Positions 3,226 to 53,676 of a stretch of DNA of 64,000 bases are shown piece after piece. A model generated the notes under the pieces. That model did not search any database. It saw only the letters and a program-made list of their open reading frames with translations, and had not been told where the DNA came from. A program made the translations under genes and the position numbers. The stretch covers positions 612 through 64,611 of the forward strand of contig CAVUVG010000009.1 of NCBI GenBank assembly GCA_963744775.1, in the 5' to 3' direction. Within the stretch, counting starts at the first letter, position 1. The number at the start of each line of letters is the position of its first letter. This DNA comes from Bryobacterales bacterium (GTDB taxonomy: Bacteria; Acidobacteriota; Terriglobia; Bryobacterales; Bryobacteraceae).

Positions 3226-4470
3226 TTACCAGTGCGTAACGGAGCCATCCGGCCGCAAGTAGAACAGCCGCCGCCCGGCCTCCGTCACCGAGCTGATGAA
3301 CTTGACCCGGTTCACATCCAGAGTGACGCCCAAGCCGGGCCGGTCATTGGTGTAGAGCCTGCCCTTGCGGAAGTCCAGGAACTCGGGCAGGTACTGGATG
3401 CCCCGGTCACCGTAATTGTACTCGAAAAGCACCGGGCCGGAGAACGTGGAGAGGCAGTGTACCAGGGCCGCCGTCGCAACCGGCCCCGTGAAATGCGGGA
3501 CGATTCCCACGGCATGCGTCTCGCACAGCGCCGCCACCTTCATCATCTCCGTGATCCCGCCGACATTGGGCAGCGTGGCGCGAATGTAGTCGATGTCGTG
3601 ATTCTCGATAAGCCGGTTGAAATCCCAGCGCTGGCCCCACTCCTCGCCGTGCGCCAGCGGGCAGATGGTCATCTGCCGCAGTTTGGGGATGTCCTGGAGC
3701 GCGTGCTCATCGCGCACCGGATCCTCTACCAGAAATGGTTCGTATTCCTCGATCAGCTTGCAGCAGCGCAGCGCGTCGGAGTAGTCGAACCTCTGGTGGA
3801 AATCGATGGCGAAGTCGCCTTTGCCGAGGCCTTCCCGCGCCGCCTTGCAGGCTTCGGCCACCAGGCGCACCCGCTCGCGGGAATTGTAGACGTTCTCGAT
3901 GATCGGAGTGGACCCGCCGGCGTCCATGCGATAGGCACGGAAGCCGGCCGCAATGGTTGCCGCGGCCGATTCCCGGATTCGGGCCAGTGGATCGGCGGCC
4001 GCCCCGGCGGGCCGCACATTGCCGGTGGAGTAGCACTCGCAGAAGTTGCGAAGCGAGCCGCCCAGGATCTGGTGGACTGGCGCGTTCAGGGCTTTGCCCT
4101 TGATGTCCCACAGGGCCAGGTCCATGGCGCCCTGCGCGTGTATCTTCTCCCGGCCCGGGGGGTAGAACCAGGAGATGTAGGTCTCCTGCCACAGGCGCTC
4201 GATCTGAAACGGATTCTGCCCGATCAGATTCCCGGCGCACTGTTCCAGGGTGTCCCGGGAGCCTCCTTCACCGACGCCCGTGATCCCGATGTCCGTCTCA
4301 ACCGTCACAAGCATGTTGCTCTGGTTGAACAGCCGGTTCACGTTCGGCGGCTCGTAGATATTGACCTTGGTGATTTTCGCCTTGGGCAGCGCCGCATCCA
4401 CCCGGCGCGGCCCAGCCAAACCGGCCACCGGAGCGGCGGCCAGTGATTTCAGAAAAGACCTTCGGAACAT
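3226..4470 (-). CDS. Enolase-superfamily (MR/MLE) enzyme with twin-arginine-type leader
   Basis: 414-aa ORF. N-terminus MFRRSFLKSLAAAPVAGLAG. Motifs ALWDIKGKAL, FAIDFHQR, FLVEDP, AHGEEW, IDYIRAT. It abuts the DUF362 start codon with no gap. Confidence 0.8.
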   Translation of the reverse strand: MFRRSFLKSLAAAPVAGLAGPRRVDAALPKAKITKVNIYEPPNVNRLFNQSNMLVTVETDIGITGVGEGGSRDTLEQCAGNLIGQNPFQIERLWQETYISWFYPPGREKIHAQGAMDLALWDIKGKALNAPVHQILGGSLRNFCECYSTGNVRPAGAAADPLARIRESAAATIAAGFRAYRMDAGGSTPIIENVYNSRERVRLVAEACKAAREGLGKGDFAIDFHQRFDYSDALRCCKLIEEYEPFLVEDPVRDEHALQDIPKLRQMTICPLAHGEEWGQRWDFNRLIENHDIDYIRATLPNVGGITEMMKVAALCETHAVGIVPHFTGPVATAALVHCLSTFSGPVLFEYNYGDRGIQYLPEFLDFRKGRLYTNDRPGLGVTLDVNRVKFISSVTEAGRRLFYLRPDGSVTHW

Positions 4471-7763: not shown

Positions 7764-7836
7764 CGGCGGGCACGGTCGGGAAGTGCGTGCCAAGGCTTCT
7801 GATGTATGCTGAGAGCTACGGCAAGGAGTTGTGCGC

Positions 7837-8673
7837 ATGAATCGTTTGAACTTGTTTTCCATCTTCTTCCTTCTGACCGTCGCCCTGTGCACGGCCCAGA
7901 CCCCTGACTGCAAGCTGGCGCCCGGATGGTCGCAGGACGGCCCACTGCGGACCTTCGAGTCCGATAACCTGTTTGAGTACATGGACGGCAACGCCGAGGG
8001 CTACCTGATCTACAGCTTCCTCAAGATGAACGGGGTCACGTGCAAGTCCGGCGAGGTGACGCTGGTGTTCGACGTTTCCGAGATGACCGACCCGGAATCG
8101 GCCTACGGCATTTTCATGTCCAACCGCGATCCGCGCATCCCCGTCCAGAAGATCGGCACGGCGGCGCAGATTCAGCCGCGGAGAGGCATGTTCGTCAAAG
8201 ACAAATATTTCGTCGAAATCGCGGCCAATCCCGAGGGCGACCATACGGCGGCCCTTCGAGCTTTCCTGACGGCCATGGAGAAGAACGTTCCGGGGCAGTC
8301 CGGCCTGCCGGAGATGCTGACATGGTTCCCCACCGAGAAGCTGGATGCGACCTCCATGCGCCTGGTGCCGCAAAGCGTGTTGGGCCTCGGGCTGCTCCGC
8401 AGGGGCTACGTGGCGCAGTATGAGTACGGAAAGGCGTTCATCGTAACCGAAGCCTCCCCGGAAGCGGCTGCCGCGGTCATGAAGAAAGCCAGCGCGCGTT
8501 TCGGGCAGACCCAACCCGTGAAGGTGGGCGACGAAGCTTTTCAGATTGCCGACAAGTACCTGGGGCGCCTTTGCTTCTTCCGCAAGGGGAAGTACGTCGC
8601 GGGCTTTGCCAATGTGACGGAACCAACCGATCCCGTCGCGTCGGCCGGGGCGCTCGCCGCTAAGATGCCGTAG
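7837..8673 (+). CDS. Secreted hypothetical protein; shares a domain with the C-terminus of the polyferredoxin at 50644..51050
   Basis: AAGGAG lies 8 nt before ATG 7837. Signal-like MNRLNLFSIFFLLTVALCTAQ. Motif NLFEYMDGNAEGYLIYSF parallels DLWEYIDGAADN in the other gene. Confidence 0.55.
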   Translation: MNRLNLFSIFFLLTVALCTAQTPDCKLAPGWSQDGPLRTFESDNLFEYMDGNAEGYLIYSFLKMNGVTCKSGEVTLVFDVSEMTDPESAYGIFMSNRDPRIPVQKIGTAAQIQPRRGMFVKDKYFVEIAANPEGDHTAALRAFLTAMEKNVPGQSGLPEMLTWFPTEKLDATSMRLVPQSVLGLGLLRRGYVAQYEYGKAFIVTEASPEAAAAVMKKASARFGQTQPVKVGDEAFQIADKYLGRLCFFRKGKYVAGFANVTEPTDPVASAGALAAKMP

Positions 8674-29367: not shown

Positions 29368-30430
29368 TCAGGCAACAGGCCCGCGCCAGCGGCCAGGAAT
29401 CAACGCGGAGCAGGAGGGGCACCTTCCCTCGGCCGTGATCCGATAGTCGCCAACCCGGTAGCCATAGCGGGCCACCAACAGCTCGCCGCAGGCGGCGCAC
29501 CGTGTGTCCTCCAGGCGCTCCGTCTGGCCGGGCAGATTGCCGGCGTAGACGTAGCGCAACCCTGCGCTCCGCCCGATGGAGGCGGCGCGCACCAGAGTGG
29601 AGGGCGGCGTGTCGTCCGGATCGCGCATCTTGTAGTCCTTGTGGAATGCCGTGACGTGCCAGGGGATGTCCGGCGAAATGCCGGCCAGGAATTCGGCGAT
29701 CTGCCGCAATTCCTCGTCCGAATCGTTGAAGCCGGGGATGACCAGCGTCACCACCTCCAGCCAGAATCCCATCTGGTGGATCAGGCGGATGCTGTCCAGA
29801 ATGGGCTGGAGCCGGCCGCCCAGCTGGTGGTAGTGCTGCTCGTCGAAGCTCTTCAGATCGACCTTATAGAGATCGAGATGGGGCTGCAGATACGCGAGCA
29901 CTTCAGGCGTGGCGTTGCCGTTTGAAACAAAAGCCGTCAGCAGCCCGGCCCGGCGCGCCTCCTGAAATACCTCCACCGCCCACTCGGCGGTGATCAGCGG
30001 CTCGTTGTAAGTGCTCACCACGGCTTCGGCGCCCGATTCCAGCGCCAGCCGCACCAGGTGCGTCGGGCGTCGTGGCCCGCACCGGCGCAGCGGCCTCGGG
30101 GTCGCGGATCGCCTGCGAGGTCACCCAGTTCTGGCAGTACGAGCAATGCAGGTCGCAACCCAGCATTCCGAAGCTCAGGGCGACGGCGCCGGGCCGCACA
30201 TGGAAGAAGGGCTTTTTCTCGATCGGGTCGCACTGCACCCCGGCCACGTAGTCCCAGGGCACGTAGAGGGCGCCGTCCCGGTTGAAGCGCACCTTGCACA
30301 CGCCGGCCTGGCCCTCCGCGATGGGGCAGCGATGCCCGCAGGCGAAACAACGGATACGTTTGTTCTCCAGCGGTTCCCAGAGGTCGCCTTCGCGGACGTA
30401 GCCCCCCAGGACCTCCGCAAGCGTGGCCAT
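29368..30430 (-). pseudogene. AmmeMemoRadiSam-type radical SAM enzyme (PflA-like activase fold), one frame change near 30060
   Basis: N-terminal part has RCFACGHRCPIAEGQAGVCKVRFN and the radical SAM triad CDLHCSYCQNW (tail of ORF 29903..31795). The C-terminal part is ORF 29368..30054, with a C-terminal CxxC...CPxC. Confidence 0.75.
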
Positions 30431-34813: not shown

Positions 34814-39395
<4,582 letters not shown>

Positions 39396-40425: not shown

Positions 40426-41948
40426 TACCGGGGTTTGGGCAAAGGCTTGCGCGGGAGCAGTTCGGGCCGCGTCGCGGCGTTGTAGGCGAAGGAGGCCACA
40501 ATGGCCGCGGCCTGCATCAGGTCGGCCGCCTGCACACGTTCATAGGTGTCCAAGTTGGCGTGGTGCGTGCGCGTATCGTACTCCAGATCGTCTTGAATGA
40601 ACTGGAATCCGGGCAGACCCACGGCATCAAATGAGAGGTGATCCGTGCCCGTGGTGTTGCGGATAGTAACCGTGGTGGCGCCCATGTCCCTGAATGGCGC
40701 CAGCCAGGCCTCGAAAATCGGGCGCACCATGTCGTTGCCTTGCATGTAAATCCCCCGAAACTTGCCGCCGCCGTTGTCCACGTTGAAATAGGCGGACAGC
40801 CGGGCGTGCTCGGGTTTGAGCGCCATGGTTTGCCGCTCGGCGAAATGATTCGTGACATAGGCACGAGAGCCGAGCAGCCCTTGTTCCTCCGCGCTCCAGA
40901 GCGCCAGACGCACAGTGCGGTCCATCTTCAGATCCAGGGCTTTGAGAATGCGCATGGCCTCCATCATGACCGCGCATCCAGCGGCATCGTCCGCGGCTCC
41001 GGTGCCTCCAGTCCAGGAATCCAGGTGCGCGCCGAGCATCACGACCTCGTCCTTCTTGCGTCCCCCCGGAATCTCGGCGATGAGATTGAAACTATCGATG
41101 TGGTCATCGAGCAGTTTGGCCTCAATGTTGAACTCCAGCCGCACCGGGATCTTTCTGTCGAGGAGACGGGCGATGCGGTCGTATTGCTCGGCGAAGACAG
41201 CGACCGTAGGGGGCGGCACGGGGTCCTTCAGATCGCGAGAGCCGGCTGAGGCAGCGACGATGACGCCCCATTGCCCGCGGCCGCCCGGCGTCAGCACCAG
41301 CAACGCGCCTTCGTCCTTCAGAAATTTGTCACGGCGTGCCGCGAGCTCGCGCGGGCTCCGAGGCCTGCTGGGCGGCGGCTCTTGCGCCAGCGCCAGCGAA
41401 GCCAGTTCCGCTTCCGTGTAACGGCTGCTCGCTGGTGTCGTCTGCATGGCGATCTGCGGAGGGGTCTCCACGAGGACGATCTTGCCCTTCAGCGTGCCCT
41501 TGAACTTCGACATGGCTTGCTCAAGATCGGCGTCGCTGGTGAGCGGCAGCGGCGCCAGGACCGCTTCGGCCGCGACAAGGCCGTTGGTGCCGGGCGTCCA
41601 GGGCAGCGCGACGCCGGTGACCGGCGTTGTCTGCGGTTCGATCATGTTTCCCGAGTAGCGCGCCAGCGACCAGCTTCTTCCGTAGGGACCCCATTTCTCG
41701 GTCTTGACGTTTTGAAGCCCCCAACCTTCCAGTTGCTTCAGCGTCCACTCGGCGGCTCGTTGGAAGCCCGGTGAGCCCGTCAGCCGGGGACCATAAACAT
41801 CCGTCAGATAAAAGAGATGGTCCATGACCTTGGAGTTTTCGAGCGCCTCGCTCTTGATGCGATTCACGACCGCAAGATCGACTCTCTCTTGAGCATGCAA
41901 GGAGGCGCACGCCACCAATAGGACCGCCAGCAGTGTTCTGCGTTTCAT
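40425..41948 (-). CDS. M28-family aminopeptidase with PA domain, secreted
   Basis: Signal MKRRTLLAVLLVACASLHA. Zinc-site region VMLGAHLDSWTGGTGAADDAAGCAVMMEAMRIL, plus SAEEQGLLGS. Confidence 0.8.
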   Translation of the reverse strand: MKRRTLLAVLLVACASLHAQERVDLAVVNRIKSEALENSKVMDHLFYLTDVYGPRLTGSPGFQRAAEWTLKQLEGWGLQNVKTEKWGPYGRSWSLARYSGNMIEPQTTPVTGVALPWTPGTNGLVAAEAVLAPLPLTSDADLEQAMSKFKGTLKGKIVLVETPPQIAMQTTPASSRYTEAELASLALAQEPPPSRPRSPRELAARRDKFLKDEGALLVLTPGGRGQWGVIVAASAGSRDLKDPVPPPTVAVFAEQYDRIARLLDRKIPVRLEFNIEAKLLDDHIDSFNLIAEIPGGRKKDEVVMLGAHLDSWTGGTGAADDAAGCAVMMEAMRILKALDLKMDRTVRLALWSAEEQGLLGSRAYVTNHFAERQTMALKPEHARLSAYFNVDNGGGKFRGIYMQGNDMVRPIFEAWLAPFRDMGATTVTIRNTTGTDHLSFDAVGLPGFQFIQDDLEYDTRTHHANLDTYERVQAADLMQAAAIVASFAYNAATRPELLPRKPLPKPR

Positions 41949-41992
41949 AAAAGCCTGAGCATATCAGATCAGCGGCACTCTGTTGTTGTTAT

Positions 41993-42006
41993 GTAATAAT
42001 TATTGT
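41993..42006. promoter_or_regulatory. AT-rich near-palindrome upstream of rubrerythrin (Fur/PerR-box-like)
   Basis: GTAATAATTATTGT has the perfect core ATAATTAT. It sits inside the only AT-rich stretch of this intergenic region, about 6 nt before ATG 42012. Confidence 0.3.
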
Positions 42007-42011
42007 TAATT

Positions 42012-42440
42012 ATGAGTCACCACATATCACTCAAAGGGACCAAGACGCACGAAAACCTCAAAGAGGCGTTTGCCGGAGAGTCGCAGGCCAACCGGCGCTA
42101 TCTCTATTTCGCCAAGAACGCCGACGTGGAAGGCTACCCTGACGTCGCGGGCCTGTTCCGCGATACGGCCGAGGGGGAAACGGGCCACGCGCACGGCCAT
42201 CTGGATTACTTGAAACCGGTTGGCGACCCGGCCACCGATCTTCCCATGGGGGAAACCGTCGACAACCTGAAATCCGCCATCGCCGGCGAAACGCACGAGT
42301 ACACGGACATGTACCCAGGTATGGCCAAGGCTGCCCGCGAGGAGGGCTTCGCCGAAATCGCCGACTGGTTCGAGACCCTGGCGAAGGCCGAGAAGTCGCA
42401 CGCCGGCCGCTTCGCCAAGGGGCTCGAGAGCATCGCCTAG
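42012..42440 (+). CDS. Rubrerythrin-family diiron protein without rubredoxin domain
   Basis: [36 protein letters not shown] and [14 protein letters not shown] are the ExxH diiron motifs of the rubrerythrin family. Confidence 0.85.
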
Positions 42441-42442
42441 CA

Positions 42443-43756
42443 GTGTCCATCATCAAAGGAACGCCCAGCCCGGGTCTTACGTACGACCCGAATGTGCCCG
42501 TCTATTGGGACGCCGGCGCGCTCCAGCAGGAACTGGACCGAGTCTTCGACATCTGCAATGGCTGCCGGCTTTGCTTCAACCTGTGCCCGGCCTTTCCTGA
42601 GCTGTTCCAGGCCGTGGAGCGGCACGGGGGTGACGTTCGGGAGTTCACGCCGGCGGAAACCGGGCGCGTGATCGACACTTGCTATCAGTGCAAGATCTGC
42701 TACGTCAAGTGTCCCTATACGCCGGATGACGGCCACCAGTTCCAGCTTGACTTCCCGCGCCTGCTGCTGCGCGCCAACGCTGTGCGCAGGAAGGCGAGCG
42801 GTTTCGACCTCCGTTCGCGGGTGCTATGCCGCCCCGAGATGCTCGGTAAGATGGCGGCCCTCACGCCCGGCATCGCCAATTGGGCGAACCGGCAGCCGTT
42901 GCTGCGCGTCCTGATGGAGCGCACCCTCGGGATTCACCGGGAAAAGCTTTTGCCGGACTTCTACGGCGAGACCTTCATGGATTGGGTCCGGAAGCAGCCC
43001 GCCCCTTCAGGTGACGCTTCGCGTGCGGTGTTGTTTGTGACTTGTTCGATGAACTACAACAACCCACAACTTGGCAAGGACGTGCTTGAGGTCTTTGCTA
43101 AGAGCGGGATCGCCCTGGTGGCGGTGAAACAGAACTGCTGCGGCATGCCCGCGGTGGAAGCCGGCAATATGGAACTGGCCCGGCGCATGGCCCGGAGCAA
43201 CGTGGAGGCGCTGCTTCCCTACGTCAGGGAAGGGAAGAGGATCCTGATCGCCGATCCGACGTGCTCTTATATGCTGCGCAAGGAGTACGCCGAACTGTTG
43301 GGCACGCCCGAGGCCAAAGAAATCGGGCAAGCGGCCATGGATGTCTGCGAATACCTCTTCCAGCTCAAGCAGGAAGGCAAGTTCAACCGTGACTTCCGCT
43401 CCGCCCCGCGCAGCGTTGCCTATCACCTGCCTTGCCATTTGAAGGCCCAGAACATCGGTTTCCGCTCACGGGACATGCTGCGGCTGATTCCGGGCACCAC
43501 GGTCAAAATGGTCGAGCAGTGCTGCGGTCATGATGGTACTTGGGCCATGAAGAAGGAGTTCTTCCCGCTGTCCAAGCTGGCGGGCAAGAAAGCTTTCGAG
43601 GAGATGGCCGCCGTGCAGGCCGATGTGCTGGCGACCGATTGCCCGCTGGCCGCCGTGCAGTTCGACCAGGCCCTCGGCAGGCGGCCCATTCATCCCATCC
43701 AGGTGCTGTCGCGCGCCTATCGCGAAGACGGCTTCCCGAAAGCGGAGAGCAACTGA
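42443..43756 (+). CDS. Fe-S protein with two 4Fe-4S motifs and two CCG domains (HdrD/GlcF/GlpC-like)
   Basis: CNGCRLCFNLCP and CYQCKICYVKCPY, followed by Cys-rich CCG-type segments (CCGMPA, CHLKAQ, CCGHDGTW). Confidence 0.8.
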   Translation: MSIIKGTPSPGLTYDPNVPVYWDAGALQQELDRVFDICNGCRLCFNLCPAFPELFQAVERHGGDVREFTPAETGRVIDTCYQCKICYVKCPYTPDDGHQFQLDFPRLLLRANAVRRKASGFDLRSRVLCRPEMLGKMAALTPGIANWANRQPLLRVLMERTLGIHREKLLPDFYGETFMDWVRKQPAPSGDASRAVLFVTCSMNYNNPQLGKDVLEVFAKSGIALVAVKQNCCGMPAVEAGNMELARRMARSNVEALLPYVREGKRILIADPTCSYMLRKEYAELLGTPEAKEIGQAAMDVCEYLFQLKQEGKFNRDFRSAPRSVAYHLPCHLKAQNIGFRSRDMLRLIPGTTVKMVEQCCGHDGTWAMKKEFFPLSKLAGKKAFEEMAAVQADVLATDCPLAAVQFDQALGRRPIHPIQVLSRAYREDGFPKAESN

Positions 43757-44323
43757 TGCGGCCTGTCACGGTTGCGGAAATCAAGAACCTCGCCGCATAC
43801 GAACTGGAGCGCGAGCACTGGCGACCGTGGGTCATGGCGCTGAAGGAAAAGCGGCGCGTGCGCGTGGGGGATCATCTGACGTTCCTGTTCGAAAACCACG
43901 AAACAGTGCGTTACCAGATTCAGGAGATGATCCGCATCGAGCGCATCGTCAAGCCGGCCGAAATCGCGCACGAAGTCGAGACTTACAACGAGCTGATTCC
44001 GGGCGCCGGGGAACTGAGCGCGACCCTGCTGATCGAATACGAGACGCCCGCTGAACGTGATTGCGGCTGAGGGAATGCTCGGGCTGGAGGAGCACGTCTG
44101 GCTGGTGATCGGAGATCTGCCGCCCGTGAAGGGCCGGTTCGACACCCGGCAGATGTCGGCCAGCCGCCTCAGTTCCGTGCAGTATTTGAAGTTCGCCCTG
44201 ACGCCCGCTCACGCCGCGCAATTTCCCGGCGGAGCGCGCATCTTCGTCGACCATCCACACTACCATGCCGATAGCGCGCTGACCTCAGACGAACTCACGG
44301 AGTTGACTAACGATCTGGTATAG
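43756..44323 (+). pseudogene. DUF3501-like protein, one frame change near 44055
   Basis: The ATG overlaps the previous stop by 1 nt. MRPVTVAEIKNLAAYELEREHWRPWVMALKEKRRVRVGDHLTFLFENHETVRYQIQEM... continues in ORF 44057..44323. The family name is from memory of the sequence pattern. Confidence 0.55.
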
Positions 44324-45218
44324 GGGCGCGCCGCCGGCGTGCAGAGGTCCATTCCCAGAAGAAGCCCGCGGCGTTGGCGACCTGGCTCAATAGCAGCAGC
44401 GCGGTCACCTTCAGGGGGTGGCGGCGGTGCTGCTGCCGCAGCGGCCAGGAGAGCATGCGCCGGTAGAACCGAAGGGGCTCCACGTGTATACCTTCACCCG
44501 TACGCTCCCGGTGCGCGCGCCAGTACCGGCGGGCGCCACGGCCATATCCAAAATGCTGAGACCAGAAAGTTGTGAGACTCAACGGATGCAGGTGCCGGAC
44601 CACGGCGTCCGGGACGAAAGCCATGCCGTGGCCGGCGGCGCGCAGGCGGTCGCACAGGTCACGGTCCTCGGCGGCCGCTTTCGGGTAAGAGGTGTCGAAA
44701 CCGCGCACGGAACGGAAGCTCTCGGCCGCCAGCGCAAGATTATTGGAAGCCAAGAACCAGAAATTACGGGGATCCCGGTTGAAGTAGTCGTAGAGGTAGC
44801 TCACCAGAGCCTGGCTGGCCGTGGCGTAGACGTTATCCTCCAGCGCATTGATCGTCCGTCCGCCGACGATGGAATCGGGCGCAGCGTTCAGGCGGGCCGC
44901 AAAATGCACAAGCCACTCCGGCGCCGGGCGGCAATCGTCGTCGGTAAAAGCGAGAAAACGGCCCTGGGCCACGGCGGCGCCGCAGTTGCGGGCCAGCGCG
45001 GGGCCCGCTCCGGGCTGGCTCAGAAGCGTAATCCGCAGCCGCTCGCGCCACGGCGCGATGACGGGTTCCACGGGAGTGAGGCTGCCATCGTCCACCACCA
45101 CCACCTCGAACCGCGCATCTGGATAGCGGAGCGCCGCGACGGCATCCAGGCAGGCCGCCAATTGGTCATGCCGGTCGCGGGTGGGAATGATGATGGAGAA
45201 GTCGAGGGTCTCTGACAT
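44307..45218 (-). CDS. Family 2 glycosyltransferase
   Basis: FSIIIPTRDRHDQLAACLDAVAALRYPDARFEVVVVDDGS and FTDDDC (DxD) are present. Internal ATG 45218 chosen as start. Confidence 0.85.
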   Translation of the reverse strand: MSETLDFSIIIPTRDRHDQLAACLDAVAALRYPDARFEVVVVDDGSLTPVEPVIAPWRERLRITLLSQPGAGPALARNCGAAVAQGRFLAFTDDDCRPAPEWLVHFAARLNAAPDSIVGGRTINALEDNVYATASQALVSYLYDYFNRDPRNFWFLASNNLALAAESFRSVRGFDTSYPKAAAEDRDLCDRLRAAGHGMAFVPDAVVRHLHPLSLTTFWSQHFGYGRGARRYWRAHRERTGEGIHVEPLRFYRRMLSWPLRQQHRRHPLKVTALLLLSQVANAAGFFWEWTSARRRRAPIPDR

Positions 45219-45237
45219 GCGCGCCGCCGGTGCTCGC

Positions 45238-46311
45238 TTACCCTTCCGCCGCACACACTTGAACCGGCATGCCGGAGCGGGCCGACTGGACGACCGCGAG
45301 GGCGACCCGCAGACTGTTCTTTCCGTCCTCCAACGTGCATTGGGACGGGAGGTCGTGGAGGATGCAGTCGATGAAGTGCCGCCAAAGCCCGTCGAAAGTC
45401 GCCTGAAAATCCCCGCCTCTACGCAGAACCGGCAACGCCTGCGGCAGGCTGCCGAGGGAAGCGAGGGTCTTCTTCACCCGATCCCCCAGGTCGCCGGGAT
45501 ACTTGGAAGTCGGGTAGAACTCCAGCCCGTCGAAGCGGTAGAGCGAAAGGCACAGCCGGCCGAGCTCGCCATAGATCTCCACCTCACTGGTGGGGCCGGT
45601 CCGGAAGCTGAAGACGCCGGTGGCCAGGACGCCACCGGCCAGCCGGGCCATGACGGTATTGGTTTCGTCTTCGTAAAATTCGGACGGGATGCTGATCGAG
45701 AAGATTTGCTCCACGTCTCCGCCCCCGAAGTAGCGCCAGAGATCGAAGTGGTGAACAGCCTCGTTGAAGGACACGCCTCCGCCCAAATCCAGTTTGCGGT
45801 GCCAGTCCGGCGCCTTGTCGCCGAGCCGGTCATGCGTGTAAGCGCTGCGAATCGCCTTGATGCGCCCCAGGGCGCCGGTGTTGAGAAACTCACGCGCGCT
45901 CCGGACAAGGCGATGCCAGCGCAGGTTGAACCCCACCACGACCTTGCACGGCGACTGGGCGGCCCGGGCGATGAAGCGGTCGCACTCGGCCAAACTCAGA
46001 GCCAGCGGCTTTTCCACCAGCACGTGCTTGCCGGCATCCAAGGCCGCGATGCCAATCTCGGCGTGGGACGCGGCGGGCGTGAGGATGGCCACCGCATCCA
46101 CATCGGAACGGTCCAGCACGGCACGATAATCGCTCAGCCTTAGCGGGGCGCCGAGCCGGTCCGCCAGGCGCGCGGATCGCGCCGGATCCAGGTCGGTGAC
46201 CGCCACAACGCGCACTTCCGGCATGTGCAGAAGCGGAGGCAGATGGCGCTCCTCGGCCACGCGGCCGCAGCCGATGATGCCCAGGCGGATGATCCTCTCA
46301 GGACGGCTCAC
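45238..46311 (-). CDS. Gfo/Idh/MocA-family oxidoreductase (cytoplasmic, no leader)
   Basis: GTG start, with IRLGIIGCGRVAEERHLP and VLVEKPLA motifs. Confidence 0.85.
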   Translation of the reverse strand: MSRPERIIRLGIIGCGRVAEERHLPPLLHMPEVRVVAVTDLDPARSARLADRLGAPLRLSDYRAVLDRSDVDAVAILTPAASHAEIGIAALDAGKHVLVEKPLALSLAECDRFIARAAQSPCKVVVGFNLRWHRLVRSAREFLNTGALGRIKAIRSAYTHDRLGDKAPDWHRKLDLGGGVSFNEAVHHFDLWRYFGGGDVEQIFSISIPSEFYEDETNTVMARLAGGVLATGVFSFRTGPTSEVEIYGELGRLCLSLYRFDGLEFYPTSKYPGDLGDRVKKTLASLGSLPQALPVLRRGGDFQATFDGLWRHFIDCILHDLPSQCTLEDGKNSLRVALAVVQSARSGMPVQVCAAEG

Positions 46312-46315
46312 TGGC

Positions 46316-47443
46316 TCACCTTCCTTCGCAGCTCGTCACGTAACGCGCCTCGACGTTGAAATCGGTAATGGGGCGGTCGAGGTAAGGGCACTTCCGGCAG
46401 AAGCTCACGCTCTCCCTGGAGTCCCGGATGGTCTGGCGCAGGCGCGCGGCGCGCGGGCTGTGCCATAGGTCGCGGAAGGAGACATCTCCCCCGATACGGC
46501 CCAGCGATAGGTCGGCATTGTAGTCCTGCTCGCAAAGCACGAGCGTGCCGTCGGCGAACACGGATGGGAACCAGAAAGGTTCCAGGCAGAAGAAGCCGTC
46601 GCTGCCACCAAAGTGCCCGTAGGCGCTCCACTCCTCCGCGTCGGGCGCCAGGGCGCCGTTGGTGCAGGCGTCGGAAGTCGATTCGATGAAGAAGATGTTG
46701 CGGATGGTCAGTAGCTCGAAACCATGCCGGGCCGCAAACTCGTCGAGTAGCCCCACCTCATGCTGATTGTGCTTCATGACGATGAAACGCATGTTCAACA
46801 CGGGTCTGGTGAGGCCCCGCGCGCGCTTCATGGCGGCCAGCTTCTTCACCCCTTCGAGAATCGGCGCGAGTCTGGCGCCAACCCGGTAGGCGGAGTTCGA
46901 TTGGTCCGTCAGCCCGTCCAAGGCCAGGATGAGATAGGCGGGCGGCTCCTCTATCAAGGCCTCCAGAACCCGTTCGTCGTTGAGGTTCTGTCCATTGGTG
47001 GACAGCAGGGTGGCGACGTCGTGTTTGCGGGCGGCGCGAAGAATCTGCTTCAGGCGCGGGTGAAGCAACGGCTCCCCCCAAGCCCACAGGGAGGCGGTCA
47101 ATAGATAAGGCCCAACCTGGTCCATGACCCGCTCGAACAGTTCCGCATCCATGGCCACGGGGGGACGGTTCAAAGACTTGGAACCCGTGGGGCAGACCGG
47201 ACAGCGCAGGTTGCAGTAGTTGGCCAGCTCGAACTGCATGTGCAAAGGCATGCCCCAAGGGCGCAGGCGGCGGAAGAGGAGGTTTGCTCCGGATTTGAAA
47301 AGGTTGAGCCGCTTGGCCGCGGACATCCGGTCGGCCAGCATCGGCATTTGATCGTACTGGAAGGCGTAGCGCCCGCGCGCCAGGACGTCCCACACCAGCT
47401 TGGGGGCACGCACCAGACCTCGGGTGCGTTCGCGAAATGTCAT
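46316..47443 (-). CDS. Radical SAM protein with SPASM/twitch-like C-terminal Cys cluster
   Basis: The CNLRCPVCP (CxxxCxxC) triad comes after about 70 N-terminal residues. The C-terminus has CLEPFW...LVLCEQDY...CRKCPY. 4-nt overlap with the upstream gene. Confidence 0.8.
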
Positions 47444-48369
47444 GCCAGCGCCCGGAAATAGTCGATGGTTTGGCGCAGACCGTATTCAAGTTGTACTTTC
47501 GGTTTCCAGCTTAAGAGATTAACGGCTTTAGAGATATCAGGGCGGCGTTTCTTCGGATCATCCTGTGGCAGGGGATGGTTTTCCACGGCGCACGCCGCGC
47601 CCGACAGGCGGCAAACGCACTCGGCGAACTCGCGGATGGTCATCTCTACCGGGTTGCCGAGGTTCACGGGGTATCGCTCATCGGAAACCATCAGCCGGCA
47701 CAGCCCCTCCACCATGTCGCTGACGTAGCAGAAGCTGCGCGTCTGCGAGCCGTCGCCGAAGAGTGTCACCGGCTTGCCGCGCAGCGCCTGGTCGATGAAC
47801 GCCGGCACCACGCGCCCGTCGTCAAGCTGCATGCGGGGACCATAGGTGTTAAAGATCCGCGCAATGTTCGTGCGCAACCCGTGCACGCGATGGTAGGCCA
47901 TGACCAGCGCCTCGGCGAACCGCTTGCTTTCGTCGTAGCACGAGCGCACGCCCACAGGGTTTACGTTGCCCCAGTAGGTCTCCCGCTGCGGGTGCTCGAG
48001 CGGATCGCCGTAGCACTCCGATGTCGAAGTCAGCAGGAACCGGGCCTGATGGCGGCGCGCCAACTCCAGCATGTGGCGCGTTCCTATGGATCCGACGTCC
48101 AGGGTTTCGACCGGATGGGCCAGGTAGTCCTTCGGGCTGGCCAGGGAGGCCAGATGGAGCACGCCGTCGACGGGGCCATCGATCGCCAGCGGCTGTGTCA
48201 CGTCGTGCTGGATGAACTGGAACCGGGCGTTCCCGGCCAGGTGCGCGATGTTGCGGAGAGAGCCCGTCAGAAGGTTATCGATGCCGGCAACCGTGTGGTT
48301 CTCCGCAAGCAGACGGTCGCACAGATGAGATCCGATGAAGCCGGCCGCGCCGGTCAGAACGAGCCGCAA
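47440..48369 (-). CDS. UDP-glucuronate decarboxylase-like NAD-dependent epimerase/dehydratase
   Basis: [28 protein letters not shown] (YxxxK), and overall UXS-like sequence. Confidence 0.85.
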
Positions 48370-48417
48370 AAGGTACCTCCGGTAAGCCCACCATTGTAGC
48401 GGATCGAGAAAGCGGGG

Positions 48418-49404
48418 CTACACCTTTACGACGTGCGTCCTCAGTTTCTCGAACTGTGGAGTGCCCAAACCTCGCTGGCTGGCCAACTGGAGGTAGAGGA
48501 GGTCCTGCTCGCCGAGATTCCAGTAGGCCTTGGCCACGTAGGCATCCAGGGCCACCGGGTCGGTGCCCGCGATGAGCGTCTGGCGAAGCGCCACGTCCTC
48601 CAAGTTGCCGCCGCTGGGCCCGCCGCGCAGGAGCACGCGGTAGGCGTCGATCAAGGTCAGCGTCGGGCGCATGAAACTGCCCAGGTCGGCCAAGCTCTCA
48701 TGGATGCGCTGGTGCAGCCGCTGGCGCTGCCCGCCCAGGATCCCGTACCAACTCTTGAGCCCCAGGGTGACGCCGGTGAGGCTGTGGTGCTTGGCGACGG
48801 GCAGGTTGATCATCTTGTCGGCCGTCAGGAAAGGTTCCAAGACCGGCCATACACGCAGCAGATCGCCGCCCAGATCGACCCGCTTGAACTTCCTCTCCTC
48901 CGGCAGGACAACCTCGGCGCCCGCCGCGCGCGCCGCCTCGGCGATTCCGCTGCGGGCAAAGCAACGGTGCGGTTCGTTGATACTCACGTCGGTGACGATC
49001 ACGGTCTTGGCGCCGGCATCCAGGCACAGGCGCGCCGTTTCCGCCACCACGTCAGGGTTCGTGTTTGCGGCCTGCTCGGGTGTGCGGTCCCAAGAGACAT
49101 TGGGTTTGATCACGACCACGTCACCGCGCGCGATGAACCGCTTCATGCCGCCCAGTTCCGCAACGGCCCGGCGCACAAGCTGCCGTGGATCCTCCCCCTG
49201 AACCACGGCCAGCTCGGGCAGGCTCGCATCGGGCGGCACGGTGAAACTGCGCTTCACGTAGGCCACCGCGGGCTCCTCCGGCTGGCGGCTGCGGCTCTTC
49301 AACCAGAAACCTAGCCCGGCCGCGCCTGCGCCCAGACCTCCGAGCCGCAGCACTCGCAGCAGCGCTTCCCGCCGTCCCGCAAGCTCTGGTGCCGTTGGCA
49401 TCAT
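48418..49404 (-). CDS. DUF362 domain protein with twin-arginine-like leader
   Basis: The start MMPTAPELAGRREALLRVLRLGGLGAGAAG overlaps the upstream stop (TGATG). VVIKPNVSW...NLPVAKHHSLTGVTLGLKSWYG parallels the DUF362 gene at 2101..3225. Confidence 0.65.
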   Translation of the reverse strand: MMPTAPELAGRREALLRVLRLGGLGAGAAGLGFWLKSRSRQPEEPAVAYVKRSFTVPPDASLPELAVVQGEDPRQLVRRAVAELGGMKRFIARGDVVVIKPNVSWDRTPEQAANTNPDVVAETARLCLDAGAKTVIVTDVSINEPHRCFARSGIAEAARAAGAEVVLPEERKFKRVDLGGDLLRVWPVLEPFLTADKMINLPVAKHHSLTGVTLGLKSWYGILGGQRQRLHQRIHESLADLGSFMRPTLTLIDAYRVLLRGGPSGGNLEDVALRQTLIAGTDPVALDAYVAKAYWNLGEQDLLYLQLASQRGLGTPQFEKLRTHVVKV

Positions 49405-50620
49405 CAGACGCCCAGCAACTGGTGCGTTTCGGCGAGCTTTCGAGGAATCTCGAGCCCTTGCGGGCAGTGCGGCAGGCAGGTGCCGCAGGCGGCGCAGGAG
49501 TCGGCGCGGCGATCGAGCCGGGCATACAGGCGGCGCGCCACGCCGCGGTCGCCATAATCCACCGCATAGCGCTCGAAGCGCAGGATGTCCGCGATGGGCA
49601 CTCGCCGCGGGCAGAACTCCAGGCACTCGTTGCACAGGCGGCAGGCCTCCTGGTCGGCGTGCGCCACCATCATCTCGATCGCACGGCGGTCGCTGGCGCG
49701 CATGCTCTTGCCCGCGCCCGACACGGTATCGACGAACTGGCTCAGGCTGTTGATGCGAACCAGCGCCGCGTCGAGCTGCGAGGAAGTGGTCAGCCAGCGC
49801 GCCAGCGCGTGGTAGGGTGTCGTGCCGGCCGGGAACTTCTTCATGATCGCCTGATCCTGCGCCAGCCGCCCCACGCCCCGGGCGGTCTTCATGGCGACGG
49901 TGCCGAATCCCTTCTGCCGCGCCAGCGCCAGCAGCCGGTCCATGGCCGGCTCGTCTCCGTAGGAGTAGGCGAACTGCGCGTGCTCGTAGAGGCCGTCCTC
50001 GATGACCGCGGTCAGCACCTCGGCCGCGCTCTGCCCGCCTGGGACGCGGAAGTTGCCGTTGTAGCTGTGCTGGGAAAGGCACAGGTGCCGGACCAGCCCT
50101 TCCTTCTTCGAGGCGATCGAAGGCGCGGATGAAACCGCGGTTCTGCTTCACTTCGGCAACGTTGTGGTAGCCGAAGTGAAACTGCATATCGTCGAAGTAA
50201 CCCAGGCCGGAGCTCTTGGCGGACTCTTTGACGAGCCGGTAGTGCTCCTCGGTGTCGATGCGTGCCGCGTTCATGGTTGCCGCCCACGCGGTCCACGCAA
50301 ATGGTGCAATAGTGAGCCTCGCGGTTCTTGAGGATGCTTTTTGGCACCGCCCCGTCCGGCCACTCCGTGGCCTTGTGCCAGAAGTTGACGCCGCAGCGCA
50401 CACCGGCCTCCACGGCGTCGGGCGCCCAGTCGCCGGCCCCCACCATGACGCTGACTTCCCGCTTGCTGTAGCCCAGCTTCCGGCGCGGCAATTGCCCCAC
50501 CGCGCTGACCGCTTGGTCCATCTCCTGCACGGTCGCCGGTTTGGCACAGGCATTCATGCCCGCGCCCATTCCAGCCGCGAGCGCGGCACTGGATCTTTGG
50601 ATGAATTCCCGTCGCTGCAT
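49404..50620 (-). pseudogene. Aldo/keto-reductase-like oxidoreductase with C-terminal 2x[4Fe-4S] motifs and Tat leader; at least 3 frame changes between 50020 and 50350
   Basis: Leader MQRREFIQRSSAALAAGMGAGMNACA. C-terminal CRLCNECLEFCP and CAACGTCLPHCP lie in intact ORF 49404..50018. The middle is split over several frames. Confidence 0.65.
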
Positions 50621-50643
50621 ATTCTTCCTCCTGTTGTTCTGCG

Positions 50644-52730
50644 TTATGGAACGAGCTTCTTTTCGATCCCTCGCGCCAGCTCCACCAGCGCCTCCGCGAT
50701 CCGCGGATCCTGTTGGTAGGCTACCAGGCGCACAAAGTACGGTCCTTTGCGGAACGTGAGGCTGGCCCCGTACAGCCGGCCCTCCTGACCCAAGGCGACC
50801 GGCTTGCTGCCCGCCGCGGACTCGAATTCGAAGATCTTTCTTGCGCCCTCGGCGTCCTTCGTCACGTAGATGTCGGCCACGGCGTCGACTTTGTCCCGAT
50901 AACGGTAGTCGGCGGCGAGCGTGCGCACCATGCCCGCCCGGACATATTGTCGGCGGCGCCGTCGATATACTCCCACAGATCGTCCGCCGTGAAGGTGCGC
51001 GTTTCGGCCGTCCTGCTCCAACCTTTGACTTCGTTCGACTCCGGAAAAAGCGAGGCGGGGGGCGTCGCCACGGGCTTACTGAGCAGAATCTGGTTGATCT
51101 TCGAGCGGCTCTCGCCGATGCTGGTGACGTACACGGCCGGCCGGTCCCGCACCGGGCAGGCGAACTCGCAGGCGCCGCATCCCACGCAGCGCTCCGGGAC
51201 CACGTAGGGCTGGCGCACCTGTTTCACCGCGCCCGCGGCATCGGTGACGTCGGCGGGCCGGAGATAGATGGCCTTGGGAGACGTCGGGCACCACTCCTCG
51301 CAGACGATGCACTCGGTGGCCATCGACCAGGGCAGGCAGCGGCCGTGATCGTAGAACGCCGTGCCGATGCGGATGGGCTTCGCGTCCTTGGGTGCAGTTT
51401 CGCGCGGCCCAGGCCTTCTGGGCCAGCGTGAACTCCCAGATGGCGCCCGTGGGGCAGACCTGGCCGCAGAGCGTGCAACTCGGCTCGCAGTATCCGATGC
51501 GCGGCACCAGCACCGGCGTCCAGATACCCTCCACGCCCGGCCTGCGCGAGGGTCGGGATGCAGGGCGTTGTTCGGGCAGACCTTCATGCACTCGCCGCAG
51601 CGCACGCAGCGGTCGAGAAAGCTCTTCTCGTCCAGCGCGCCGGGCGGGCGGATGAGCCGCTCGTCTGGCTTCGACCGCCAGGCCCGGCGTCGCTGCGCAG
51701 CAGCGGCAACAGCGGCGGCGCCCGCCGCCAGTCTGGCGAGCGCCTTGCGGCGCTGCAGGTCCGGCCCCTCGATGGTGGCTTCGCGCGCGGGAAAGAACTT
51801 GAAGCGGAGCCCGCTCTCGGGGCAATCGTCCACGCAGTTCAGGCAGAGATGGCACTCGGCCTTGCGCCATTTGGCGCCGGGGATCGGATCGTCGCCGCCC
51901 TGGCAATGCAGCAGGCAGCGGTTGCAGTCCTCGCAGTTGCGCGGGGTGCTTCTCCAGGCCCAGAATCGACCAGCGCGACATCCAGCCCAGCAGCGCGCCC
52001 AGCGGGCACAGCGCCCGGCACCAGAAGCGCGTGATGCGCAGGTTCAGCGCCAGGATCGCGATGAAGAGCAGCCCCAGGAAGAAGCCCTGGCGGAAATACG
52101 GCTGCTTGAAGCTCAGCACCACCTGGCGCAGCAGGAAGTGCGAAGCACTTCGGCCAGCGATGCGCAGGACGCCGGAGCCGCTCTGGTACAGGGCGTCCAG
52201 ACAGCGCATTCAGAGCGTAGTTGAGCCCCGGCAGGATGGAGAGCGCCAGCGACCGCACGGTGAGCGAGATCGGGTCGAGCACGCCCGCCAGCGCAGCTGC
52301 CGAACAAGGCGGCCGCGCGAGCACGCGCGATCAGGATGTAGTACTTGAGCCGCTGCCAGCCCTTGTAGCGGTTGGAGTCGATGCGCTGCCGCCCGCGCTT
52401 CTTCTCCGACTTCCAGTCGCTGAAGAAATGATTCAGCGTGCCGAGCGGGCAAACCCAGCCGCAGAAGAACCGGCCCAGGAACAGCGTGGGGATGAGGATG
52501 ACCAGGCTCCAGATCAGGCCCTTGTAAAGGGCCCGCGTGGAGAGCGCGCTGGTGATGGCGACCAGCGGATCGGCTTCCAGGAAGATGCTGGCGGGGTAGG
52601 GAAGCCGTATGTCGCCCCTGGCGGCGCGCAGGGATTCAGGGGCCACGGTCTTGACCAGCAGGAACAGGAACAGGGCGAGGAAGACGATTTGGGAGGTGCG
52701 GCGCAGCCGGAGGAGTGCTCGATAGCTCAC
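50644..52730 (-). pseudogene. NapH/NapG-like fused membrane polyferredoxin with extra C-terminal domain; at least 5 frame changes
   Basis: Membrane part has FFCGWVCPLGTL and RFWCRALCPLGAL (CxxCP pairs). Cluster motifs: CEDCNRCLLHC, CHLCLNCVDDCP, CVRCGECMKVCP, CTLCGQVCP, CIVCEEWCP, CVGCGACEFACP. There is an internal RRKALARLAAGAAAV segment followed by LIRPPGAL (NapG-like). The tail is DLWEYIDGAADN...FVRLVAY. Confidence 0.65.
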
Positions 52731-52787
52731 TGACGCAAGGCCCAGTCTACCATGGGCCGTCGGACGGTGATCAGCCTCCTGATGCGC

Positions 52788-53423
52788 CTAGGGCTTGACG
52801 CCGCCGTAAGTGCGCCAGTAGTGCGATGTGGATTCCTCGAAGATCCGGCAAGCCTGCTCCGGATCCCTGGTGGCCAGCCCTTCCAGAATCCGGCCGTGCT
52901 GCCATACCGACGTGGCGTAGGTCTGAGGATTTCTCTGATTTCGCAGAATCGCGAACACGAAAAGAGCAAACGCCACACGGTCAAGGGCGGCTGTCAGATG
53001 CTCGTTGCCGCTGAGTCGCCAGAGTACCCTGTGAAATTCGATGTCGCGGCGGTGATACTCGGCCAGGTTGAGCGCATTGGCGGCGGCCGTCATGCGGTCC
53101 AGGCTTGCGCGCAGTTCCGCCAGCGCGGCATCTGTCATATTCTGGGCAGCCTTCCTCACAGCCACGACTTCCAGCGCCATCCGGACCTCGTAGAGTTTAA
53201 CGACGTCCTCGCGGCTCAAGTCTGTGATGTAGGTGCCCCGCTGCGGGATCTTGCGCACGAAGCCTTGGATTTCCAACTCCTTGAGAGCCTCGCGCAGCGT
53301 AGGCTGGCCGACCCCAAAGGCCGCCGCAAGCTTCTGCTCGATCAGTCTCTCGCCTCGCGTGAGTGAACCCGTGAGTATGGCGGTGCGCAGTTGCTCGGCG
53401 ACTTTTTCGGCACGAGACTGCAT
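52788..53423 (-). CDS. GntR-family transcriptional regulator (FadR/FCD subfamily)
   Basis: AEKVAEQLRTAILTGSLTRGERLIEQKLAAAFGVGQPTLREALKELEIQGFVRK is the winged helix, followed by a helical C-terminal domain. ATG 53423 is preferred over GTG 53504. Confidence 0.85.
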   Translation of the reverse strand: MQSRAEKVAEQLRTAILTGSLTRGERLIEQKLAAAFGVGQPTLREALKELEIQGFVRKIPQRGTYITDLSREDVVKLYEVRMALEVVAVRKAAQNMTDAALAELRASLDRMTAAANALNLAEYHRRDIEFHRVLWRLSGNEHLTAALDRVAFALFVFAILRNQRNPQTYATSVWQHGRILEGLATRDPEQACRIFEESTSHYWRTYGGVKP

Positions 53424-53548
53424 TGGTAGAGGAGCGAGATCCGCGATGCTCACCTGGCTGGCGCCGTTTGCCACAGTTGACCTTGATAGAGTATAGCAGT
53501 TCACGGGCCAATGTTTTCAGTTCGTTGCGGCTCAGCAGGAAATTCTTG

Positions 53549-53577
53549 TGGACAGTCTATAGCCAATAGTCTATAAT
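53549..53577 (+). promoter_or_regulatory. Sigma70-like promoter: TGGACA, 17 bp spacer, TATAAT
   Basis: TGGACA at 53549-53554 and a perfect TATAAT at 53572-53577, read directly. The spacer and -10 carry two AGTCTATA direct repeats (53554-53561 and 53568-53575). Confidence 0.4.
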
Positions 53578-53583
53578 CTATCA

Positions 53584-53676
53584 GTAATTCCAGATAATCA
53601 TATCGGAATATCGAAGACTTGAGCCCTCTCCCCACTTGAACATAGCCCCCGTCCCTGTGACGGGGGCTTTTTTTTG
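53584..53676 (+). ncRNA. Candidate small RNA (about 90 nt) between an orphan promoter and an intrinsic terminator
   Basis: No ATG and no ORF longer than a few codons lies between the putative TSS and the terminator. The region is AT-rich relative to its surroundings. No plus-strand CDS is upstream or downstream. Confidence 0.3.
53644..53676 (+). terminator. Rho-independent terminator, plus-strand oriented
   Basis: AGCCCCCGTC-CCTGT-GACGGGGGCT has a perfect 10-bp stem followed by a run of T residues. On the minus strand the hairpin is not followed by a U-tract. Confidence 0.7.

Follow-up and report, generated by a model that had tools for sequence, protein, structure and literature searches.

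The NapGH proteins of Escherichia coli and Wolinella succinogenes combine a membrane part, which carries C-x3-C-P motifs and two 4Fe-4S clusters, with a four-cluster periplasmic ferredoxin that depends on twin-arginine translocation (Tat), and electrons presumably pass through them from the membrane to a periplasmic enzyme. NapH and NapG can also be fused into a single polyferredoxin, as in MLMS-1 PFD, whose first four transmembrane segments use the Sec pathway and whose fifth uses Tat (Tooke et al. 2017, eLife; PMC5449189). In this protein, a conserved twin arginine (RR) precedes the predicted fifth transmembrane domain (TMD), and Tat translocation was tested with five-TMD reporter fusions (PMC5449189). 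Here, we describe a locus with a polyferredoxin of this kind in a Bryobacterales bacterium (Acidobacteriota; Terriglobia; Bryobacteraceae). The stretch analyzed, referred to as the window, covers 64,000 nucleotides (nt) of contig CAVUVG010000009.1 (positions 612 to 64,611; assembly GCA_963744775.1). Four co-directional genes on its minus strand code for a GntR-type regulator (gntR), the polyferredoxin, a protein with a predicted aldo-keto reductase (AKR) fold and a C-terminal ferredoxin domain (AKR-FeS), and a DUF362 protein. We propose, as a reasonably likely reading, that the last three belong to a three-part periplasm-facing redox module of Terriglobia (Bryobacteraceae/Solibacteraceae-like Acidobacteriota), composed of a membrane conduit and Tat-exported partners. 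It builds on the domains and conserved motifs of the proteins, on their predicted folds, and on the linkage of the genes and the breakpoints in their synteny.

The polyferredoxin gene (50644-52730; minus strand, as are all features of the cluster) reads through after ten one-base corrections and codes for a polytopic protein of about 688 amino acids (aa). Its Pfam matches are Fer4_5 (twice), several Fer4 families and DUF6599. The NapH-like membrane part (51777-52730) contains four hydrophobic segments, both Fer4_5 matches, two C-x3-C-P motifs (FCGWVCP, 52440-52466; WCRALCP, 51997-52023) and two 4Fe-4S motifs (CEDCNRCLLHC, 51903-51935; CHLCLNCVDDC, 51822-51854). An internal twin-arginine motif, LQRRKAL, and a weakly hydrophobic segment (51708-51758) that is predicted to form a Tat-dependent fifth TMD join it to the NapG-like part (51072-51770), which is predicted to be periplasmic. 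The sequence LIRPPGAL (51633-51656) and four 4Fe-4S motifs (51576-51608, 51454-51489, 51288-51311 and 51156-51188) follow, and a DUF6599 domain (50647-51056; PF20244, 1.1e-17), predicted to be extracytoplasmic, forms the C-terminus. Two C-x3-C-P motifs with two C-terminal 4Fe-4S motifs are the features that mark NapH/MauN, and a twin arginine with four 4Fe-4S motifs those that mark NapG. The curated models match separate halves of the protein, NapH at residues 7-304 and NapG at residues 318-531, with scores below their cut-offs: 94.4 bits (6e-27) against 269 for NapG (NF007012), 65.9 against 178.85 for MauM/NapG (TIGR00397), 84.1 bits (8.4e-24) against 234 for NapH (NF007013) and 79.9 against 213 for NapH/MauN (TIGR02163).

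More than 7,700 homologs of the polyferredoxin were found. The intact ones, of 675-690 aa, come mostly from metagenome-assembled genomes (MAGs) of Bryobacteraceae and other Acidobacteriota, and the window protein is ~75-78% identical to two of them (P0001 and P0002). Across an alignment of 25 homologs, the 24 cluster cysteines (six CxxCxxCxxxC-type motifs), both C-x3-C-P motifs and the internal RR are invariant. Behind the RR, the family continues with a GLAAGAAALPLLR-type segment, which leads into RLIRPPGAL. Hydropathy profiles of intact homologs show four strong segments (Kyte-Doolittle 1.8-2.6) within the first 230 residues, and the segment directly after the RR is weak (~1.3) and followed by Arg. 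Judged by these features, the window polyferredoxin fits the published dual Sec/Tat class of NapH-NapG fusions, a class that is itself already known. It shares with MLMS-1 PFD the four-TMD NapH-like part fused to a four-cluster NapG-like part, as well as a conserved RR immediately ahead of a fifth segment that is weakly hydrophobic and has positive charge behind it. What sets the window family apart from MLMS-1 PFD is its DUF6599 tail and its consistent linkage to genes for DUF362 and AKR-FeS. From NapGH it differs in that both subunits are united in one polypeptide, the scores remain far below the NapG and NapH cut-offs, napA, napB and napC are absent from twelve annotated related loci, and the partners are AKR-FeS and DUF362. 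No molybdopterin or cytochrome c families occur among the Pfam calls for these twelve loci or for the window genes examined; the other 160 related loci were not searched for nap genes.

The DUF6599 tail also exists apart from the polyferredoxin, since the window encodes a stand-alone secreted DUF6599 protein at 7831-8673 on the plus strand (280 aa, Sec-type signal, Pfam 1.7e-28). In one clade of relatives, DUF6599 is split off as a separate gene with a lipoprotein-type signal. Both observations fit an extracytoplasmic location of the domain. PDB sequence searches with the polyferredoxin and with DUF6599 gave only chance or generic ferredoxin matches, and no literature on DUF6599 was found. In the clade with the separate DUF6599 gene, an additional NapH-like protein follows AKR-FeS (L008, 9321-10049, 242 aa with Fer4_5 and Fer4; also L014 and L119).

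AKR-FeS (49404-50620; ~404 aa after two frameshift corrections) begins with a Tat-type leader (50543-50620) and ends in a ferredoxin domain with two 4Fe-4S motifs (49611-49643 and 49464-49496). Its best match to Pfam Aldo_ket_red (PF00248; E = 0.0068, 16.0 bits) lies below the gathering cut-off of 24, and otherwise only the C-terminal two-cluster ferredoxin is recognized. The AKR assignment therefore rests on the predicted fold and not on Pfam. This fold was taken from a model of an intact, 75%-identical homolog, P0241 (predicted local distance difference test, pLDDT, 84.7), and not of the window protein itself. The model is predicted to form an (alpha/beta)8 AKR-type barrel, and (nearly) all of its top 50 PDB matches are AKR-type oxidoreductases (E down to 4e-11; template modeling (TM) scores (target) of 0.55-0.70). 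Homologs of ~400 aa with 56-75% identity occur in Acidobacteriota (Terriglobia, Aminicenantes) and Bacteroidales. An N-terminal RR-x-F is invariant in 27 of 27 and 38 of 38 sequences, as are the eight C-terminal cysteines.

The active site of this branch departs from that of the superfamily. In a profile alignment to the AKR 1ynp, itself a weak match (E 0.005), GINFWHKAxxW stands opposite GINYLDTADLY, and the catalytic tetrad Asp-Tyr-Lys-His is replaced by His82, Trp87, Arg111 and His148. A wider search returned 62 representatives at E ≤ 1e-30 and 778 at E ≤ 1e-10. The RR is invariant in all 18 distant representatives that were aligned, and seven of them keep DTAxxY, TK and H at exactly the tetrad columns, which corroborates the replacement in the window's branch. 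The two-cluster domain at the C-terminus, like the RR leader, is also present in distant full-length relatives. On these alignments, AKR-FeS belongs to a larger, as yet undescribed family of Tat-leader AKR-ferredoxin fusions, in which it represents a branch whose active site is derived; no literature on a periplasmic Fe-S AKR was found. Because the tetrad is lost in this branch, 'carbonyl reductase' would be an unsafe name. Its predicted destination, the periplasm, holds no free NAD(P)H, unlike the usual setting of AKRs.

The DUF362 protein (48418-49404; 328 aa, intact) scores 170.1 bits against PF04015 (8e-50; cut-off 24) and is assigned here to a 'b' subtype, DUF362b. Its N-terminus (49273-49380) consists of an RR, a hydrophobic helix and RSRQPEE, with no signal-peptidase site. 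In orthologs of 67-97% identity the RR is at least 90% conserved and the helix is followed by RSRRPEE, which suggests that the N-terminus acts as a Tat-inserted signal anchor. A second subtype, DUF362a, is only ~23% identical to the window copy and carries an (S/T)RRxLF-type motif in all N-termini examined. Thousands of DUF362 homologs were found at E ≤ 1e-10, and nine polar residues are invariant across three subtypes (Lys100, Asn102, Lys205, His207, Lys217, His231, Asp253, Asp282 and Asp287). The best PDB folds for a medium-confidence model (pLDDT 76.7) are malate racemase and LarA (E 1e-4, probability 1.0, TM 0.44). This predicted likeness to the LarA superfamily of nickel-pincer nucleotide 2-hydroxyacid racemases and epimerases (DUF2088) agrees with the placement of DUF362 in the same Pfam clan, CL0471 (PMC11770544). 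In contrast to LarA, the DUF362 proteins studied here carry a Tat-type leader and are linked to a polyferredoxin. They also have no match to LarA in the PDB at the sequence level, as searches with the single sequence and with a profile gave chance or generic ferredoxin matches, and Pfam Lar_N does not match either. The literature found mentions DUF362 only as an outgroup or in domain listings. In other organisms, DUF362 frequently occurs fused to Fe-S domains (PMC5742341), and a redox role would fit these fusions. Its LarA-like fold and the lack of conserved cysteines leave room for a non-redox isomerase role.

A second, divergent DUF362 gene is present in the window (2104-3195, minus strand; Pfam 1.1e-23, 84.8 bits) and has the leader TRRNLF. 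Directly before it lies a gene for an enolase-superfamily (MR/MLE) protein with the Tat leader MFRRSFLK (3226-4470, minus strand). This pair of a periplasmic sugar-acid-dehydratase-like enzyme and a LarA-fold protein (2104-4470) hints at hydroxy-acid or sugar-acid chemistry, at least for this DUF362 subtype.

A preliminary description, made from the DNA alone, had already read the polyferredoxin as NapH fused to NapG through a twin-arginine segment followed by LIRPPGAL, and the matches to both halves and the RR in 25 of 25 homologs bear this out. Its count of about six 4Fe-4S motifs holds with exactly six, but the two cysteine pairs it gave as CxxCP are C-x3-C-P. The AKR-like protein with a Tat leader and two C-terminal Fe-S motifs is likewise borne out by the predicted AKR fold and the invariant RR-x-F, and so are the RR-containing leader of DUF362 and the presence of two DUF362 copies with export leaders in the window. 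The suggestion that an aldo-keto reductase acts here on a carbonyl or sugar substrate finds no support, as the tetrad reads His-Trp-Arg-His.

To place the three genes in a wider context, 172 related loci were compared, comprising twelve annotated contigs (L001-L012) and the best 80 loci from each of two collection scans. Two anchor sets were used, namely 80 metagenome loci anchored on the polyferredoxin and a set of species genomes anchored on the AKR. In the first set, the next downstream gene after the polyferredoxin is DUF362 in 22 of 59 cases and AKR-FeS in 13 of 59; the gene immediately upstream is DUF362 in 7 of 51. Where 5 kb is available on both sides, DUF362 is found within 5 kb of the polyferredoxin in 16 of 23 loci. 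In the AKR-anchored set, the polyferredoxin stands directly upstream in 16 of 60 cases, all of them acidobacterial MAGs (labeled Acidobacteriota, Terriglobia, Bryobacterales, Terriglobales or Solibacteraceae). The three genes are adjacent in at least five different orders, represented by L011/L012/L015/L016, by L032/L072/L130/L153, by L023, by L168 and by the window. As adjacency survives this shuffling of gene order, we argue for a functional link, and the repeated co-occurrence of three of the four genes in related soil bacteria makes it probable that the module is real.

In many relatives, the cluster is longer. Its extended form in L011 and L012 consists, in this order, of the polyferredoxin, AKR-FeS, DUF362a, the AmmeMemoRadiSam radical-SAM gene, a Memo-AMMECR1 fusion, a convergent gene for a major facilitator superfamily (MFS)/spermidine-synthase-like protein and DUF362b. 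The AmmeMemoRadiSam models (TIGR04335, TIGR04336 and TIGR04337) and the MFS/spermidine-synthase model score above their curated cut-offs in relatives, where the AmmeMemoRadiSam genes directly follow DUF362a in the same cluster. The window differs in this respect, as tblastn found neither Memo nor AMMECR1 in it. A frameshift-split radical-SAM gene elsewhere in the window (29380-30427, minus strand) is only distantly related, with 36-40% identity to its counterpart in the AmmeMemoRadiSam system of the relatives. The literature searches returned AmmeMemoRadiSam only in annotation lists and in one prediction from 2007. In a distant polyferredoxin clade (53-56% identity), a DUF362a-DUF362b tandem follows the polyferredoxin, without AKR-FeS or AmmeMemoRadiSam (L124, L126, L127, L135-L138, L143, L144, L147-L150, L155, L162 and L172). 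This arrangement suggests that DUF362a and DUF362b may work as a pair.

The gene order of the window can be traced to the longer form. The relative L005 shares 94% DNA identity with the window over 44892-49406; homology ends exactly at the DUF362 start codon, and at this breakpoint L005 carries the spermidine-synthase-like gene. Since the order of the L011 type minus the segment from DUF362a through the spermidine-synthase-like gene gives the order of the window, a deletion of ~6 kb is the simplest account. Most likely, then, a recent deletion would have removed DUF362a, AmmeMemoRadiSam and the MFS/spermidine-synthase-like gene and joined AKR-FeS to DUF362b. An assembly collapse between DUF362 paralogs was considered as the cause of the junction and is unlikely, as the paralogs are only ~23-33% identical at the protein level. 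In L001 (80% DNA identity), the M28 peptidase, LysR and gltB genes, located at 34-42 kb in the window, come immediately after the polyferredoxin. An 8.7-kb block (window 41894-50663) is absent from this relative, including AKR-FeS, DUF362, the genes for a UXS-like epimerase, a radical-SAM/SPASM protein, a Gfo/Idh/MocA protein and a glycosyltransferase family 2 (GT2) protein, and a gene for a GlpC-like Fe-S protein (42443-43756). The region is evidently prone to rearrangement.

Such a junction could also mean that two unrelated units, the polyferredoxin with AKR-FeS on one side and DUF362b on the other, were joined by the deletion and that their 1-nt overlap is accidental, which we regard as unlikely. 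DUF362b would then form a unit either with AmmeMemoRadiSam and the divergent MFS/spermidine-synthase-like gene or with the sugar-nucleotide genes downstream of it. The end of homology at the DUF362 start in L005, the closest relative, where the spermidine-synthase-like gene precedes DUF362b, speaks for such a split, as does the adjacency of these two genes in L002, L006, L007, L011, L017, L058, L104, L108, L131 and L153. However, DUF362b adjoins the polyferredoxin with no spermidine-synthase-like gene between them in L032, L130, L132, L139, L158, L161, L164, L165 and L167-L170, and it directly follows AKR-FeS in L023. The genes after DUF362 in the window code for the UXS-like dehydratase/epimerase, radical-SAM/SPASM, Gfo/Idh/MocA and GT2 proteins; they also follow DUF362b in L005, and the epimerase gene does so in L006. 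This link is confined to the two closest relatives, for which reason the sugar-nucleotide genes were rejected as a part of the module.

Two of the three module genes are interrupted in the assembly. Uncorrected, the polyferredoxin and AKR-FeS are each divided among three reading frames; gntR and DUF362 are intact. Frameshifts were counted by frameshift-aware alignment against intact homologs, which gave ten one-base frameshifts in 2.08 kb aligned for the polyferredoxin, two in 1.2 kb for AKR-FeS (near 50260 and 50106), none in 0.98 kb for DUF362, none in 1.5 kb for the M28 peptidase gene, one in 0.9 kb for LysR and ten in 4.6 kb for gltB, clustered in ~1.9 kb. The polyferredoxin and AKR-FeS proteins discussed here were thus reconstructed with the help of intact homologs that are 75-78% identical. 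The indels sit in two ~2-kb patches, about 36990-38837 (ten, in gltB) and about 50106-52292 (twelve, in the polyferredoxin and AKR-FeS), and the genes next to the patches are clean.

Were these frameshifts real, the locus would be a decaying remnant in which the polyferredoxin and AKR-FeS became pseudogenes after the loss of DUF362a and AmmeMemoRadiSam, a scenario that we rate as very unlikely. It would account for twelve frameshifts in 3.3 kb against none in the DUF362, M28, epimerase, radical-SAM/SPASM, Gfo and GT2 genes, with gntR intact as well, for the position of the frameshifts outside long homopolymer runs and for ~15 residues after the RR segment of the polyferredoxin that stray from the family consensus. 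On the other hand, the housekeeping gene gltB needs ten corrections in the same window and LysR one, so the indels are patchy across it; 19 of the 23 frameshifts are single-base insertions, which suggests read or consensus error. Moreover, the corrected proteins, at 75-78% identity to intact homologs, keep all family-invariant residues, including the 24 and 8 cysteines and the RR motifs. The frameshifts are most likely patches of assembly error rather than signs of decay and look like local consensus error in a long-read assembly, and pseudogenization specific to these two genes was kept only as a minor rival, gltB being equally affected.

From these observations we infer a topology, a direction of electron flow, a coupling to quinone, a physical interaction between the proteins and a DUF362 cofactor. 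The first four transmembrane segments of the polyferredoxin would be inserted by Sec, and the two C-x3-C-P motifs and two 4Fe-4S clusters would lie, by analogy with NapGH, on the cytoplasmic side. The internal twin-arginine segment would then direct the NapG-like part, with its four clusters, and DUF6599 into the Tat pathway for transfer to the periplasm. The resulting Fe-S chain across the membrane may connect with either the quinone pool or a cytoplasmic donor, again by analogy. At its NapG-like/DUF6599 end, it would exchange electrons with AKR-FeS, which has two 4Fe-4S motifs of its own and a non-canonical active site, and with the DUF362 proteins. The membrane-anchored, LarA-fold DUF362 probably carries a cofactor that would be loaded in the cytoplasm. 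A more specific, and rather doubtful, extension is that the polyferredoxin, AKR-FeS and DUF362, together with AmmeMemoRadiSam and the MFS/spermidine-synthase-like protein in most relatives, form an undescribed acidobacterial extracytoplasmic redox pathway in which a chain of Fe-S clusters wires a cofactor-bearing LarA-fold enzyme to the membrane.

Several findings weigh against such a module. The neighborhood counts rest on home-made hidden Markov models (HMMs), and the gene next to the polyferredoxin is neither AKR-FeS nor DUF362 in 24 of 59 cases; its closest relatives, L001 and L093, have neither of them at this place. Outside Terriglobia, AKR-FeS stands alone without conserved neighbors, so it does not strictly need the polyferredoxin; no conserved partner emerged in Aminicenantes or Bacteroidales when the neighboring open reading frames of 80 loci were clustered and six loci were read by eye. 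The polyferredoxin scores well under the curated NapG and NapH cut-offs, DUF362 has no conserved cysteine, and the proteins closest to it in fold are racemases, which work without external electrons. Finally, the polyferredoxin carries frameshifts at a higher density (4.8 per kb) than gltB does (2.2 per kb), with zero in six neighboring genes.

The same parts could instead serve maturation or repair, not catabolism or respiration. Like MauM/MauN, or NosR with NosG and NosH, the NapGH-like protein would then provide electrons for the assembly or upkeep of a cofactor or modification carried by exported proteins. Possible targets are the DUF362 proteins, on which the cytoplasmic radical-SAM enzyme of AmmeMemoRadiSam would act prior to export. 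This explanation overlaps with the redox module proposed above. The polyferredoxin has sub-cut-off matches to NapH/MauN (TIGR02163), MauM/NapG (TIGR00397) and NosR, DUF362a is translationally coupled to the radical-SAM gene (gaps of 1-4 nt in L002, L007 and L011), and the radical-SAM enzyme resembles glycyl-radical activases. Yet the window keeps the polyferredoxin, AKR-FeS and DUF362b without AmmeMemoRadiSam, many loci have the polyferredoxin with DUF362a and DUF362b and no radical-SAM gene, and no target protein could be identified. We consider a dedicated maturation system quite unlikely, and retain the redox module as the preferred reading.

The fourth gene of the cluster codes for a GntR/FCD (FadR-type) transcription regulator (52788-53423) with an intact frame and an alternative GTG start at 53504. 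Both Pfam domains score above their cut-offs (GntR PF00392, 1.7e-17, 63.3 bits; FCD PF07729, 4.5e-23, 82.5 bits), and the order of an N-terminal GntR winged helix and a C-terminal FCD domain assigns the protein to the FadR/FCD subfamily. The gap between gntR and the polyferredoxin is 57 nt and that between the polyferredoxin and AKR-FeS 23 nt; AKR-FeS and DUF362 overlap by 1 nt. These coordinates agree with the four co-directional genes of the preliminary description, whose label of a GntR-led operon nevertheless could not be upheld. No GntR homolog was found in the 172 related loci (single-sequence HMM, E ≤ 1e-6; tblastn, E ≤ 1e-8), and the regulator was rejected as a conserved part of the module, as none adjoins the polyferredoxin or AKR-FeS there. 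By this measure it is a lineage-specific neighbor or local addition outside the conserved module. A substrate sensed by GntR can therefore not be generalized to the family. The expected conservation of all four genes accordingly holds for three of them, which are kept together, but not for gntR. Their linkage extends well beyond the window, and the earlier impression that no characterized system has this composition agrees with searches of Pfam, NCBIfam, PDB sequences and the literature, which brought none to light.

Possible control sites were found around gntR. Two TATAGACT direct repeats, 6 nt apart, lie in the AT-rich region upstream of it (53554-53573, minus strand), and a third TAGACT lies inside the gap between gntR and the polyferredoxin (52744-52749, minus strand). 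TAGACT has six sites in the window, three of them on the gene strand around gntR, and the TATAGACT/TAGACT sites are a possible candidate for the GntR operator. Between the upstream gene for a 902-aa protein and gntR, a strong hairpin (53644-53668) with a 10-bp stem, placed between A8 and T8, probably marks the boundary of a transcription unit. A promoter and terminator scan with a weak consensus tool found no convincing minus-strand terminator inside the cluster.

A membrane conduit with Tat-exported partners is of a known kind, and it is the set of partners and the DUF6599 tail that are not described in the sources searched. The analysis reveals no substrate and overturns no established view. 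No experimentally assigned function was found for DUF362, DUF6599, the Tat-exported AKR-ferredoxin proteins or AmmeMemoRadiSam, and a reproducible genetic link now ties these families to a membrane NapGH-type conduit in abundant soil and peat Acidobacteriota. For several domains of unknown function, this yields the testable hypothesis that exported enzymes receive electrons from across the membrane, with the conserved residues, the export signals and the natural variants in gene order as experimental handles. Should the wider extracytoplasmic pathway suggested above prove real, DUF362, DUF6599 and AmmeMemoRadiSam, of which Memo and AMMECR1 have eukaryotic homologs, would gain their first functional context.

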